DNA from: a virus
Taxonomy: Duplodnaviria > Caudoviricetes
DNA length: 64,000 bases
Virus record (IMG/VR): IMGVR_UViG_2061766007_000586
Span: 64,001 to 128,000 of that record
Strand: one strand, 5' to 3'
Part shown: positions 27,590 through 63,687 of the stretch, piece after piece
Layout of the letters: each line of letters begins with the position of its first letter
Position numbering within the stretch: the stretch's first letter is position 1
The notes under the pieces: model-generated
Seen by the model: only the letters and a program-made list of their open reading frames with translations
The model's database searches: none
What the model was told of the DNA's origin: nothing
Translations under genes and position numbers: made by a program

Positions 27590-30500
27590 TTATAATTTTC
27601 TAGTAGATTTAAAGCTAACAAACGCCGTAGCAGCAGCGGTGACATTTATCACAGACTTTCCACCATTTGATAACGCTGCAGCGATTGCAGTACTTGCAGT
27701 TACACCAGCACTGATTTCAAACTGTGGTGTTGCATCAACAAGATCTGTACCATTCCAGCAATATAATGTTAAATCTTGCATATTAAATGCTAATGCAAAC
27801 GGAAGAGTAACTCCTCTATAACCAGCTGCTACTGTTCCATTTGGATTCTGTGATGTGTCGGTACAATACTGGAACTTCTTGTTTGTTGCGTCAAAGTACC
27901 AACATCCTGAAGATACAAGACTATTTGGCGGAGTTAAATCAGAGAAGATGCATTTAAGAACAAAGCAAGATCCAGCTATTCTTTCAGCACGATAGTCATA
28001 AACTATATTAGAATTATTTCCTTCATAGACTGAAGGATATTTCGTATAGTAAACACCCGTATCGTCTCTGTTAAATATTAACTGCTGCTTCCACCTATCA
28101 TGATATTCTGATGAACAGACGCTATCGGCTGTGAAATAATAAATTCCGTTACTAGCAGATGTATCTGTAAAATGGAAGAATACACGGTCTCCTGATCCAC
28201 CAAAACTGACACGTTTTGCATATGTTGTGTCAACAATTTTGTTGATATTGATCGGACCCTCATCCTGGAACCTACTCCAAACTGCATTCATGGTAGGCAC
28301 AACACATGTGTTACCACTTGTTGCAACAGAAGTTATACCACTATAAGTTTTAACAGCACCACTACCGTAGTTACCATTAGCAAGAACGTGACTATGGTTA
28401 GTACTCAGCTGTGCTGCTGTGTAAGAAGTATTACTAGTAGCATAACCAGTATGTGTATGAGTATATGGAGCATATGTATTAGCTGGGATTGTAGCTTGCT
28501 TACCTTCAAGTGAATTATTAAGTTCAACAATTGCATGCGCAAATCCCATAAATGTAGGAACAGCACATGCTGAGAAGAAGGATTGAACATTAATGTTCAC
28601 ACTAGCATTTGAAGCATATCCTTTACAATAATTGAAAAGGTTAGTAATCTCAGTAACGCCTGTAGCCGTAATAGGAGCAACCCAGCCAGGATAAGTTCCT
28701 GAACCACCACTATGTGTCCAAAGTGTAGATTCATACTTACTTCTCATAGCAGAGCATTCACTCAAGCCAGAGAAGAAATATCCATCAACAGCATAAGCTG
28801 CCTGATTACGTATATAACCGCTATGTGTATGACCAGTATCTGCTTTACTATCAAGTGCAGTCTGAAGACCTACAACCTTAGCAATTGCATGACTATGGTT
28901 GGTGCTAAGATTTGCAGCAGTATACGAAGTATTACTAGTTGCATAATTGTGAGTATGGTTAGACACAGCATACGTATCTGCATATACTTCGGATAAAGTA
29001 CCATGAGCAGAATCAAATCTGTACAGCTTACCATTTTCCATGCATGCCCATATTGCAGAATTCTTTGCACTTACTTTCTTACCCGTGTAATAGAAACCAT
29101 TCAGGGCTGAACTTCCAGTACAAGAAATAAAGACTGTCGCGTTATTTTGCGCAATAGCAGATACATTTGCTGATGTCGCACATACACTTGTTTTATAGAA
29201 CTGCTGTACAAACAAATCACCTTTAATATGATCAGCTCTAACATACTTTGCGCTCTCAGTATGTAATATGACATCTTCAATACCACAATTACCAATGTTA
29301 GCATTAGCAACACTTGACGATACTCCATCAAGCTTATTAGCTACATTAGTTAGTTGTAAAGATGTAGCATAATTACCAGATGTCTGCTTGCCATCAAGAG
29401 CAGTCTGAAGATTAGTTACATCAGAGATAGCATGTTGATGCGAAGTAGGAGCATAGTTGTGAGTATGTGTAGCAGCAGCATAGTTGTGCGTATGGTTTGT
29501 ACTAAGTTGTGCAGCCGTATAAGAAGTATTACTAGTAGCATAGTTGTGAGTATGACCAATATCTGCTTTGCCTGAAACTGCTGTACTAAGATCAGAAACA
29601 GTTGTTGCAAAAGTCATGAATGTAGGAACAGCACAACCACTCAGGAATGAACCGAAATTAGCAATACTGTATGAACCAGAACCACCAGAAATGGTATAAC
29701 CTCTACCAAGACTGAAAGTATTTAACACTTCGGTCATACCATCAGCGGTAATAGGAGCAAGCCATCCAGGATATAGACCAGTAGAGTTGGTATTACTATC
29801 AAACCAAGATGCATTTTCATATCTTGATCTCATAGCAGGACAATTAGATAATCCAGAGAAGTAGTATGCATTAACTGCAATACCAGCATTTCTGGATATA
29901 TAATTAGTGTGACTATGTGCAACAGCTGCTTTACCGTCAAGAGTAGTTTGTAAATTGCTAATTTGTGCAATTTTGTGACTATGTGTAGCAGCGGCATAGT
30001 TGTGCGTATGGTTATAAGCAGCATATGTATTAGCTGCGATAGTAGCTTGCTTACCATCAAGTGCAGTTTGAAGACCAGTTACATCAGAGATAGCATGTTG
30101 ATGTGATGTAGCAGCATAGTTGTGAGTATGTGTCTTAGCAGCATATGCAGTATCATGGTTGTGACCAGTAGCTGCTTTGCCTGCAAGTGCATTATAGACA
30201 GCAAAGTTATTAGGAACAGAATTATCTCCTGGTAACTTTGAAACAACTGTACTAGTCCAATAAACACCACCTTGTTCAGTCTCTGTAGCAGGTCTAACAT
30301 AATGGACATTTCTGAGTGCATAACAATCTGTCCAGGAAGTATTTCCACTGGTAATTGTTGAATATATGGTTGAATATATCAAACCCATAGGTTCTATCCA
30401 AAGCTGACCATTTTTAAAAGTAAGCCTGGAGCCAGTACCACGCTGATAAAAACCATCTAGCTTGTGGTTATTTGCAACTGTAGCAAATATGATACCTGCT

Positions 30501-54400: not shown

Positions 54401-57400
54401 GCTCCATCTCTAACATACACCATACCTGTAGCAATAGTTGTGTCATATGCTGAACCACCAGCCATAATGTTAGCTACACGATCCTTGGTGAATTTAAGAC
54501 GTCTGATACTTCCTCCAGAATTAACTTGGACATACCCACCATCACCGATATTAGCGATATCTACACTTCCACCAGAATAGATTTCTAATCTTTTACTTAC
54601 TGGTAAATCATAATCGCTAACACCAGCTATCTGATCAGCTATTTGACCTTCATAGCCATAATAAACACCAGAAAGGTTACTAGTATAAGTAACTGAAGCA
54701 CCAGCATGTGAAAATACCAATGCGGTAAATGGTGTGTTTTCAACATTAAGAGCTGTTCCTCCGGAAGATACTTCAATATACCCACCTGAACTAAGTCTTA
54801 CGTTGTTAACATATCCATCTAATCCAACAAAGATTTCACCAGTACCATCTTGCGCTGAAACATTATTAGCAATAGCACCAGAATTGATAAGTAATTTCGC
54901 ACTAGATATTAATGATACATTATCAACTATTCCGCTAGAATAAACATCTAATTTATCATCAACAATGGTAGCATCACTGACTATAGTGTTAGAATGAACG
55001 GTGATACCATTCCAATATCCTGAACCTATTGATCCAGTTATTGTATTCGATGCTATTGCGTAAACAGCTCCTTCTTCAGGTCTGAATGATCCACCATTTT
55101 CTACAATGTTCAAAGCAGTACCACCAGAAGAAACAGTTAATTCGTTTCTATAATGTAAAGTTACACTATTTACAATACCAGAATTATAAACATATCCAGA
55201 ATTTCCTGTAATATCTATTAATGTTGTTCCAGAATGTACAGTATACTTATTTGTTGAAACACCAGATACATGATTAGGAGCAATAACAGATGTGGAAATA
55301 TTTTGGTTATCTAATAAACTAAAATATCCGCCATTTTCAGTAATGTTGTAGTAACTTCCATGATCACCAGTAAGAGATGCACCAGGATTAACAATCACAT
55401 TAGATACTGTACCATAATTAGATACTACCAGTGCAGCACCTGAATTTAAAGTAATATCAAACACATCGGCACGAGCATTTATAAGGAGAGATCCTTCATT
55501 TACCTCAATATTAGAAGCAATACCGTCACCGTAAACATACATTCTACCACCAGAAGTGATAGTTGTATCTACACATGATCCTCCACTACTTACGTCTACA
55601 AAAGCAGAATTACCATTGATAATACTACTTTCTAATACAGTACCTGAATGTAATGTAGCTGAATTCTTACCAGTGATTTCTAAATCAGTAATCGTGTTAG
55701 GTGCAAATGTAACAGTAGCATCACTTATATAAACATAACCACCATTTTCTGTAACTTTCGGTAATACAGCACCACTACTAACATTTAATCTACCGCCATA
55801 ATTAACAGTAATATCATCAGGGCTAGTACTATTTCCTGTAACGGTAATAACTTGACCATAAGCAATTATCATGGTATCTAAATCAGATAAAGAAATAGCA
55901 AAGTATTCTTCTTTACCTTTCACCTTTAACTGATTAAAATACTGATAAGCGCAATCTAATGGTTCTGCTGCTTGGAACATTGTACTATAAGTAGTTCCAC
56001 TTAAATTAATATTGGTTCCACTTGATACAAATGTAGCAGGATCTATAATAGTAATTTCACCGGCAGGTGTACCATCAGCATAAGCAACACCAAATTTAAG
56101 CTCAGTGGCTGCAATTCGATCATATTTAAATTTGATTAAATTTACATCAAGTTTGTAGTTATGACCAGCTATACCGATGTTATCACCGGTTAAAATACTA
56201 CTTACATTGTTTGCATAACTAAGTTCTTCAGTCAGACGAACATATCCAGATGCTGATGGAAATGCTGTTATACTTTCATCGAGATATCCACCAATTGATC
56301 CATCAGGGAATCTTGTCCAGATTGTATTCTTATTTGCGGCAAATTTCTTATAGCCTGTTAATGCACATAAGAACTCCTCTAATACGCCACCATGATAATC
56401 CAAATTAGCAAATTTCTTAATACCAACTCTAACTGTATAATTGTTAAACTTGGTACCTTTCTTCATCTGAAATCCCCATGATACCAAACGAATACCATCA
56501 GTATTCGTCATCGATTTGCAATACTTTTCTCTATCAGTATCATCAGGAGATGTATATTTCGCTTGGATCTTTAGAATTTCTGTACCGTTATGGTTAATAA
56601 CATAAAGCTCGTGTGAAACAGAACCACCAGTAAATGTACTAGTACCTTCTATTGATCCAGAAACATATTCCCACCAAAGCAGCCAAGTACCAGAAATACC
56701 TTGTCTAGGGAAGAACACATTCCACACGGTTTTACTATTACCTAATGGCCAAATAACGTTGCGATAATACGAAGTATCATTATTTGTTGTTGTACCATTA
56801 AAAGTAATAGTTCCATCAGCGTTATGCTTAATAGTAATACCACCTTGAGAATATGTCTTTTGACTTATTTTAACAAGATTAGCTACCATGTTATCGTCTT
56901 GTGCATAATAGCACATAGCAGTAACACTTGCACTAATTGAAGGAGTTTTAACAGACGTTGCTGTAAATGTACATTCACCATCTGAATGAATAGTGATATG
57001 TCCATTCTCATCTACTGTAGCGATTTCATCATTAGAACTTGACCAAGTTAATGCAGAAGCTGTAGGACTACCTATAATAGCAGCAGGTTCATACACAACT
57101 TTAATATCTTGCTGATTTACAATCTTACTATCTGCATATAACGTTAAGTTTTCTAAATCTAAATCATCAATGCTGATTTCTTCAAGATTAAACGCTACTC
57201 TAAATCTACCTTGCATCGTAGCGTTTATAATTGTAGCTAATCCTAAAAAGTCAACAACTTTTTCCGATATAAAAGAAGTACTAGCTATATCGTTACGGAA
57301 CTGATCCTCAGATGTTAAATTAATAGTTGTTGCTATTGTTCCATCGCTATAATACAGATTGAAATAAGCAGGAGCATTTTTAAATATTGTTGTTGTATTT

Positions 57401-63193: not shown

Positions 63194-63212
63194 CCTAAAC
63201 AAAGAAAGAAAA

Positions 63213-63293
63213 TGGTGGAGCTAGTGGGGATCGAACCCACGTCTTGCGGCGGCACTTTGGCTTTAACCGCAATCGACACCATGTCATAGCCCC
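63213..63293 (-). ncRNA. Mini-tmRNA: tRNA-like domain only (alanine acceptor), no mRNA-like domain
   Basis: GGGGCTA-TGACATGGTGTCGA-TTGCGG-[17 nt]-CCGCAA-GAC-GTGGG-TTCGATC-CCCAC-TAGCTCC-ACCA; G3-U70 pair, TCGA before helix 2, GAC linker, no anticodon loop. Confidence 0.8.
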
Positions 63294-63304
63294 ATTTGAA
63301 AGAT

Positions 63305-63595
63305 AAACTCCTTTCTCAGGTGGAACACTATCCAGATCTTTGTGTTCCGGGTTAACCCAGTCATTACTGACTGTCTCCTTTTTCACGCCTGTGACCGAAC
63401 AATAGCATCGCTGTCTTCGGTCTACTGCTCATCACAGTATCAGGAGCGAGGGACGTATATCGTGATCAGGGTCTTGTCGCGATCAAGAACCCCACCGGAG
63501 CTACACGTTAATATGCTTGGTAGAAGCACCGTGTCTCTTCCCCTCCACACTGGACCACCTGCTTTTCCATACAGATGGCGGAGATTGGTTAAAGA
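63305..63595 (-). ncRNA. Unidentified highly structured non-coding RNA candidate
   Basis: GC-rich intergenic segment with long-range closing helices (63317-23/63555-61, 63308-11/63580-83) and at least seven nested hairpins. Confidence 0.6.
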
Positions 63596-63619
63596 TTAGA
63601 GTTTATTTTTATCATTATA

Positions 63620-63629
63620 GTCATATATA
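63620..63629 (-). promoter_or_regulatory. Early-type promoter variant TATATATGAC
   Basis: One mismatch to TATATATTAC; lies between a terminator and the structured RNA. Confidence 0.55.
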
Positions 63630-63659
63630 ATCGATAAATTTTGAACAACACTTTTAAAA

Positions 63660-63687
63660 GATCCTGGAGCATTTATGCTCCAGGATC
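63660..63687 (-). terminator. Terminator
   Basis: GATCCTGGAGCAT-tt-ATGCTCCAGGATC. Confidence 0.8.

Follow-up and report, generated by a model that had tools for sequence, protein, structure and literature searches.

The closest described counterpart of the RNA gene reported here is carried by a mycobacteriophage. Hudson, Lau and Williams (2014; PMC4131195) list an entry "Mycobacterium phage DS6A (TLD only)", tmID 11587 of the tmRNA Website, for a transfer-messenger RNA (tmRNA) represented by its tRNA-like domain (TLD), and the 2025 tmRNA database paper (PMC11915505) repeats the DS6A entry and adds plastid forms that lack a coding sequence (CDS). According to the passages on such molecules in both papers, which cite Mao et al. 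(2009), a DS6A-like TLD-only molecule strongly inhibits the endogenous tmRNA of Escherichia coli regardless of its capacity for charging, perhaps through titration of SmpB. We analyzed a window of 64,000 nucleotides (nt) that extends from base 64001 to base 128000 of a viral record of 318,604 bp (IMGVR_UViG_2061766007_000586; 100% complete according to CheckV), from a rumen jumbo phage with a 319-kb genome of 36% GC. On the minus strand of this window, at 63213-63293, lies an 81-nt gene for a TLD-only, tag-less tmRNA. The element is a real gene under selection, of a type already known from DS6A and common in phages; what is new here is its compensatory evolution in close relatives and its coupling to an abundant unclassified RNA of 286 nt.

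The DS6A element is readily found with a covariance model, R1, which was built from 25 elements of the IMG/VR family described below with the window sequence left out. In the DS6A genome (JN698994) R1 locates it at 28478-28560 on the plus strand (58.6 bits), in the gap between gp33 and gp34, where it is unannotated in GenBank. The window element and the DS6A TLD-only tmRNA are members of a single family. A preliminary description of the locus had pointed to protist mitochondria for tmRNAs without a message domain and had missed the phage precedent; its estimate of novelty was overstated, since DS6A carries the same kind of gene.

All of the TLD hallmarks named in that description can be found at 63213-63293 on the minus strand, both by direct reading and in an end-to-end alignment with the Rfam tmRNA model RF00023. 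With RNA position i corresponding to window position 63294-i, the 5' strand of the acceptor stem, GGGGCUA (RNA 1-7; 63287-63293), pairs over 7 bp with UAGCUCC (63217-63223), includes a G3:U pair (tRNA position 70), and is followed by the discriminator A and an encoded CCA, the 3' segment occupying RNA 71-81 (63213-63223) in all. The D region (RNA 8-21; 63273-63286) carries GG and UCGA, fits the tmRNA consensus GGaUUCGA, and has no conserved D stem; on visual inspection, pairing of a D-stem kind does not recur consistently among family members. Helix 2a, described earlier as 6 bp (UUGCGG/CCGCAA) closed by 17 nt, does contain those pairs; it extends to 7 bp when a U:G pair is added, so that UUGCGGU (RNA 22-28; 63266-63272) pairs with GCCGCAA (RNA 44-50; 63244-63250) and the closing cap is 15 nt. 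This cap (RNA 29-43; 63251-63265), which begins with UAAAGCC, stands in place of the pseudoknots and the tag reading frame. A GAC linker (63241-63243) joins helix 2a to a T arm with a 5-bp stem, GUGGG/CCCAC, and a 7-nt loop, UUCGAUC (linker and arm, RNA 51-70; 63224-63243). The two TLD halves are contiguous and in the standard 5'/3' order. The 15 nt between the helix 2a strands hold no resume codon, tag reading frame, or in-frame stop, and pseudoknots PK1-PK4 and the long helix 2 are absent.

The alignment with RF00023 (45.8 bits, E 1.1e-16) covers model positions 1-374, with 308 positions reduced to 13 nt in the element, and positions 1-29 and 338-374 are aligned at posteriors of about 0.9 or above. 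R1 gives the element 69.8 bits (E 1e-14), compared with no more than 29 bits for the real tRNAs of the phage. The mitochondrial tmRNA model RF02544 has no match at the locus at E<=10, and RF04321, the model of two-piece, permuted tmRNA, yields only an 18-bit partial match to the T arm and 3' end. ARAGORN calls neither a tRNA nor a tmRNA at the element and reports 20 tRNA genes but no tmRNA genome-wide; a whole-genome Rfam scan of the phage gave tRNAs only. These comparisons confirm that the element is a complete tmRNA TLD, far beyond chance.

An aberrant decoding tRNA, for example a tRNA-Ala-like molecule that has an intron or an enlarged anticodon arm, would account for the score of 29.9 bits with the Rfam tRNA model RF00005, which barely exceeds the cut-off of 29. 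No other tRNA-model score above the cut-off in this genome is as low, the rest ranging from 42 to 74 bits, and the tmRNA model and R1 score the element far higher. Nor does the element form an ordinary cloverleaf: its 7-bp stem closes a 15-nt loop, and the D arm, with its D stem, and a 7-nt anticodon loop are absent. The phage, moreover, already has a normal tRNA-Ala(UGC), different from the element. With ARAGORN silent as well, we give hardly any credence to a decoding function, a concern that the preliminary description had itself raised. Two other tRNA-model matches of the phage record, both on the minus strand outside the window, measure 112 and 132 nt (C1:223440-223551 and 231775-231906; 47.2 and 42.3 bits). 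They lie in the phage tRNA cluster, ARAGORN is silent on them, and they resemble tRNAs that carry insertions of 40-60 nt, possibly introns, in the anticodon region.

Phage homologues with covariation, which the preliminary description had proposed to look for, proved to be plentiful. IMG/VR was scanned with a pattern that fixed GGGG, GG..UCGA, the T loop, and CCACCA, with the two TLD halves 25-55 nt apart, and similar elements of 69-98 nt were found in 93 viral contigs (75 distinct). Although the pattern left position 70 free, G3:U70 is present in 93 of the 93 matches, and the acceptor stem is completely paired in 88. GG and UCGA are invariant in all 75 aligned members, the pattern having required both; in the linker, of which the pattern fixed nothing, A is found in 75, G in 69, and C in 61 of the 75. 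A plain MAFFT alignment of 25 elements has 96.6% of the cells of the three helices paired, while structures slid by 1-3 columns have about 50% paired; double-change cells number 137, against 40 in shuffles. In the family alignment A2 the acceptor helix and the T stem are both 100% paired, with three of the five T-stem pairs covarying, and all seven pairs of helix 2a covary across the family.

The cap, too, has a family motif, U-A-A-(A/G)-(G/A)-C-C (A at 89% and 79%, CC at 72%), which in most members is followed by a hairpin of 2-4 bp, often with a GNRA-like loop. The resemblance of this cap to part of the Rfam tmRNA consensus, namely the 3-nt bulge and the first pairs of helix 2b, makes the family RNAs look like tmRNAs cut just inside helix 2b. 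Family members pass the RF00023 gathering score, as matches of about 80 nt, in 47 of 50 carrier records. Pipelines based on Rfam would therefore label such elements plain "tmRNA", and ARAGORN misses them, having called none of the 93 correctly. Two 324-nt "tmRNA" genes that ARAGORN reported in the family contigs L027 and L070, whose 3' ends coincide with that of the TLD, are poor in the 5' domain and bear the remark "Tag not identified"; we rejected them as spurious, false full-length calls set off by TLD-only genes. About one third of the elements lie within or adjoin same-strand phage tRNA arrays, some only 1-12 nt from a tRNA, a placement that fits tRNA-like expression and processing. No neighboring protein is conserved across the family, and SmpB and full-length tmRNA were each found in 0 of the 50 IMG/VR carrier records. 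A BLAST comparison of two family members with GenBank phages returned nothing useful, and full-text literature searches turned up no paper describing the family as widespread.

Evidence from close relatives bears directly on whether the gene is maintained. Public sequencing runs that contain this stretch come from bovine and sheep gut samples, and DNA contigs assembled in other studies, from other host animals, run across the element with zero indels, those of datasets X8 and X14 among them. Because these independent contigs show the same short form, it is not an assembly artefact or a mis-assembled ssrA, a possibility named in the preliminary description. The relative in X8 (sheep gut) is about 94% identical and differs at seven TLD positions, of which six compensate one another as three double changes within helix 2a (25:47 CG to GC, 26:46 GC to AU, and 27:45 GC to AU); the seventh is in the cap, adjacent to helix 2a. 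The relative in X7, which has an 85%-identical TLD and a different downstream flank, shows GC to GU and UG to UA in helix 2a. Acceptor, D region, and T arm are free of the differences listed for X8, X14, and X7. The compensatory changes are direct evidence of selection on the TLD fold, and the model scores, the family covariation, and the independent assemblies together with them make the assignment of the element as a TLD-only tmRNA gene well supported.

Genes for tmRNA are common integration sites and prophages can carry ssrA fragments (PMC9004378), from which it might be supposed that the element is inert: a decayed ssrA, the remnant of a phage attachment site (attP) left by integration into a tmRNA gene, or the product of an assembly deletion. 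Both halves of the TLD are intact, however, the relatives compensate their changes, independent assemblies agree, family covariation is strong, and the phage has no tyrosine integrase. The relic reading is largely refuted, and we attach almost no probability to it.

Nor does the family derive recently from resident bacterial genes. The same pattern applied to 596 gigabases (Gb) of bacterial genomes gave 25 matches, 12 of them strong R1 members, mostly on contigs of metagenome-assembled genomes. Five bacterial assemblies with such an element also have a full-length tmRNA (106-152 bits), and in those five the resident tmRNA differs from the short one in acceptor, helix 2a, and T arm. Because the resident tmRNA differs in every helix, the short elements represent a phage-borne lineage and not recent local deletions of ssrA. 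One Pseudonocardia sp. assembly has two TLD-only elements (C99:7886-7968 and C30:36375-36457; 59.9 and 58.8 bits) in addition to a full tmRNA. In the jumbo phage itself, SmpB, a full tmRNA, RF-1/ArfB, Pth, a tyrosine integrase, and RtcB were all not found.

The bias of the family toward viruses (93 viral matches against 25, 12 of them strong, in the bacterial genomes) could also be read as the mark of a decoy whose target lies outside trans-translation. Defense systems have SmpB-like domains predicted to bind tmRNA (PMC11090510), and the RNA might engage a system of that kind (CoCoNuT types II and III-A) or serve as a non-ribosomal alanine donor. Such a role is purely speculative: no defense system of this sort and no host have been identified for the phage, and the family has no conserved partner gene. 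We regard it as very improbable.

The TLD gene lies between two minus-strand open reading frames (ORFs) of 513 and 108 amino acids, and it does not stand alone. Upstream of it, at 63316-63601 on the minus strand, is an unclassified GC-rich RNA of about 286 nt (about 50% GC, against 36% for the genome), which was recognized from contigs of RNA libraries. One rumen metatranscriptome contig of 286 nt (X7 rec6) corresponds exactly to 63316-63601 at a depth of 64.6, with flanks at 3.9-10.3, and an RNA-library contig from a different study (X3 rec4) corresponds to 63376-63579 at a depth of 34.8, compared with 4.96 for the adjacent gene; in two rumen metatranscriptome runs contigs cover this stretch alone. 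Strand and true ends cannot be read from such contigs, whose ends may be strain branch points; the depth may be inflated by the collapse of strains on an invariant segment, and DNA may be present in RNA libraries. The segment 63411-63621 is in fact invariant in four runs, whereas its flanks differ by 3-6%. The fold of the 286-nt RNA has a z-score of -3.0. Seven substitutions in relatives lie nearly all at predicted unpaired positions, which neither supports nor tests that fold, and on our reading they show no third-codon-position bias for an overlapping plus-strand ORF. A search of Rfam with the RNA gave no match at E<=10, blastn and nhmmer gave no homologue at the other 93 TLD loci or in the rest of the genome, and exact patterns gave no match in IMG/VR or the JGI metagenomes.

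Thirteen nucleotides upstream of the 5' end of the RNA contig (63601) is a -10-like TATAAT (63614-63619, minus strand; direct reading), preceded by the phage motif TATATATGAC. A consensus promoter scan did not call this site. The motif TATATATG[AT]C occurs seven times in the phage genome, always on the minus strand and never on the plus strand (positions 55256, 127629, 129829, 134907, 208087, 249681, and 309462 of the phage record), with one copy just upstream of the TATAAT of the unit; about two would be expected per strand by our estimate, so the enrichment is modest, and the motif may be a phage promoter element. Farther upstream, a perfect 12-bp palindromic hairpin (63660-63687, not assigned to a strand) follows the 513-amino-acid gene, whose ORF ends at about 63695; it is terminator-like and likely to be a terminator that insulates the RNA unit. 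From 63600 to 63213 there is no terminator-like site on the minus strand. A 22-nt spacer (63294-63315, minus strand; direct reading) separates the upstream RNA from the 5' end of the TLD. The spacer contains AAGGAG, and a mini-frame, AUG GGG CUA UGA, overlaps the TLD 5' end (63284-63293); with a Shine-Dalgarno-to-AUG spacing of about 14 nt, this arrangement is probably due to chance. Neither megablast nor blastn matched the locus to any GenBank phage, a search for related loci with the flanking 513-amino-acid protein found none, and Pfam has no family for the three flanking ORFs.

The absence of a terminator between the two RNAs suggests a division of labor in which the TLD would be mere punctuation, an RNase P site that forms the 3' end of the 286-nt RNA and is then released as a by-product. 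Consistent with this, the RNA-library contig stops at 63316, where the long-range closing helix CAGGUGG/CCACCUG has its foot, 22 nt before the TLD, although contig ends may reflect strain variation. In X14, moreover, about 97% identity extends over 63211-63673, taking in promoter, 286-nt RNA, and TLD, and similarity stops at both edges of this block, at 63211 immediately past the CCA. In this respect the 3' end of the TLD is like a module boundary or a recombination junction. Punctuation, however, predicts neither the 93 other TLD loci, none of which has a homologue of the 286-nt RNA and many of which lie in tRNA arrays or alone, nor the conserved UCGA and GAC, the compensated helix 2a, and the cap motif, which RNase P does not require. 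We consider it improbable that processing is the main function of the TLD. The 286-nt RNA is instead read as a separate, lineage-specific non-coding RNA that shares a precursor with the TLD, and cleavage by RNase P at the TLD plausibly determines the 3' end of the 286-nt RNA.

The position and size of the upstream RNA also recall the missing part of a tmRNA. As a displaced message or pseudoknot body, it would form a two-piece tmRNA in which its 5' CUUUAACC pairs with the TLD cap GGUUAAAG; with its 286 nt it is body-sized, sits immediately upstream as part of one unit, is closed by the helix given above, and is complementary over 8 nt to the conserved cap. About 0.3 such 8-mer matches would be expected by chance, by our estimate. 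In X8 the TLD partner is altered at two of the eight positions with no listed difference at the 5' end of the upstream RNA, whereas helix 2a is compensated internally. None of the reading frames in the 286-nt RNA finishes with a canonical tag-like C-terminus, the RNA has no local similarity to the Rfam tmRNA model, and the rest of the family has no such RNA. The chance that the two pieces form one tmRNA seems to us very slight. Only marginally less doubtful is the broader notion that promoter, 286-nt RNA, and TLD are one system, in which the RNA acts as a body or message in trans or as cargo or scaffold brought to SmpB and the ribosome. If true, the block would represent a new tmRNA-like architecture in a jumbo phage.

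The reading that we favor, at slightly better than even confidence, is that the element is a functional stand-alone TLD-only tmRNA gene of the DS6A family whose net effect is competition with the host tmRNA for SmpB and stalled ribosomes. Transcription would probably start from the TATAAT at 63614-63619, with the TLD forming the 3' part of a precursor that opens with the 286-nt RNA. RNase P would cut before G63293, and the encoded CCA would be the end of the RNA. Charging by the host alanyl-tRNA synthetase (AlaRS) is expected from the alanine identity set (G3:U70, A73, and G1-G2-G4 paired with C), and binding of host SmpB and EF-Tu from the GG...UCGA, helix 2a, and GAC core; similar molecules are reported to be alanylated and to bind these proteins (PMC4131195, PMC11915505). 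Because the message is absent, the RNA cannot finish trans-translation: with no resume codon, tag frame, or pseudoknots, the reaction would not be completed. The most likely consequence would be competition for SmpB and stalled ribosomes and hence less ssrA tagging and rescue during infection. Competition of this kind is the best-supported outcome, in line with the inhibition in E. coli as cited in the relevant passages of PMC4131195 and PMC11915505. SmpB sequestration had been one of two functions put forward in the preliminary description; it agrees with what PMC4131195 reports from Mao et al. (2009) in its passage on TLD-only RNA, and we put it forward here, too, as a proposal about function.

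The other function suggested there, acceptance of stalled peptides without a degradation tag, is the main rival, ranked above all the others, though still unlikely in our judgment. In such a productive tag-less rescue, alanyl-TLD with SmpB would take over the nascent chain, and host factors would release or hydrolyze the peptidyl-TLD, freeing ribosomes and leaving the product unmarked. The strict conservation of the charging elements (G3:U70 throughout the 93 matches, and the encoded CCA) argues for it, as these are unneeded for pure SmpB titration. To our knowledge, no bacterial mechanism provides for release without a stop codon on the message, and the phage lacks Pth, ArfB/RF-1, and SmpB with which to resolve a peptidyl-TLD. 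CDS-less tmRNAs are presumed to assist with incomplete mRNAs in jakobid mitochondria and in some plastids (PMC11915505), a precedent for rescue, but the inhibition described in the passage on TLD-only RNA in PMC4131195 is reported to occur regardless of chargeability, which argues against rescue.

Several points weigh against competition with host tmRNA as the role of this gene. Compatibility of the RNA with the AlaRS and SmpB of the host is assumed, and the functional precedent is second-hand and drawn by analogy from E. coli. The advantage of blocked trans-translation for a lytic jumbo phage is not evident, and there are phages that need tmRNA. Nor does the model give the conserved cap motif any part to play. 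The RF00023 score lies 1.2 bits under the curated gathering cut-off of 47. Finally, the RNA-library contigs cover the upstream RNA and not the TLD of this phage, the sole TLD-bearing RNA-library contig being a shallow one that belongs to a relative with 85% identity. Libraries of this type usually fail to retain short, structured RNAs, however, so non-coverage of the TLD is uninformative.

The wider significance of the locus is that the DS6A type of tag-less tmRNA is no oddity confined to a single actinophage but a conserved and constrained RNA gene found across very different phages. If the RNAs of the family titrate SmpB or occupy stalled ribosomes, phages would commonly manipulate the rescue of ribosomes and the tagging of proteins. 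As a class these genes are under-annotated, and standard reporters make them experimentally tractable.

Set beside known systems, the locus shares features with several. Eukaryotic long non-coding RNAs of the MALAT1/mascRNA type have tRNA-like elements for 3'-end processing, and here, too, a tRNA-like structure directly follows an abundant structured RNA with no terminator between; unlike those elements, the window TLD has its own conserved family and tmRNA features independent of the upstream RNA. With tRNA-Ala it shares identical identity elements and a tRNA-like T arm, and its acceptor, GGGGCUA/UAGCUCC-A-CCA, is that of E. coli tRNA-Ala; unlike tRNA-Ala, it lacks a D stem, an anticodon arm, and a variable region. 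Its TLD is colinear with both ends of canonical ssrA (RF00023), with the NAA bulge and the first helix 2b pairs apparently kept, but it is without PK1-PK4, resume codon, tag ORF, and stop. Like the jakobid mitochondrial tmRNA (RF02544) and the CDS-less plastid tmRNAs of about 65 nt (PMC11915505), it is a natural tmRNA reduced to the TLD, whereas those organellar forms co-occur with nuclear SmpB and the window element is a phage gene beside an intact host tmRNA. From DS6A it differs in setting, DS6A being a temperate 60-kb actinophage and the present phage a 319-kb low-GC rumen jumbo phage; in its encoded CCA, where the DS6A element ends ...CACUA; in following, within one unit, a structured RNA of about 286 nt; and in that DS6A has an RtcB-like RNA ligase (gp76) and this phage none. 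With the DS6A element it has in common a 7-bp acceptor with G3:U70, the GG...UCGA D region, a 7-bp helix 2a, the T arm, a short helix 2a cap with a motif of the AAA(A/G)CC type, and the status of a phage-encoded gene without an integrase neighbor.

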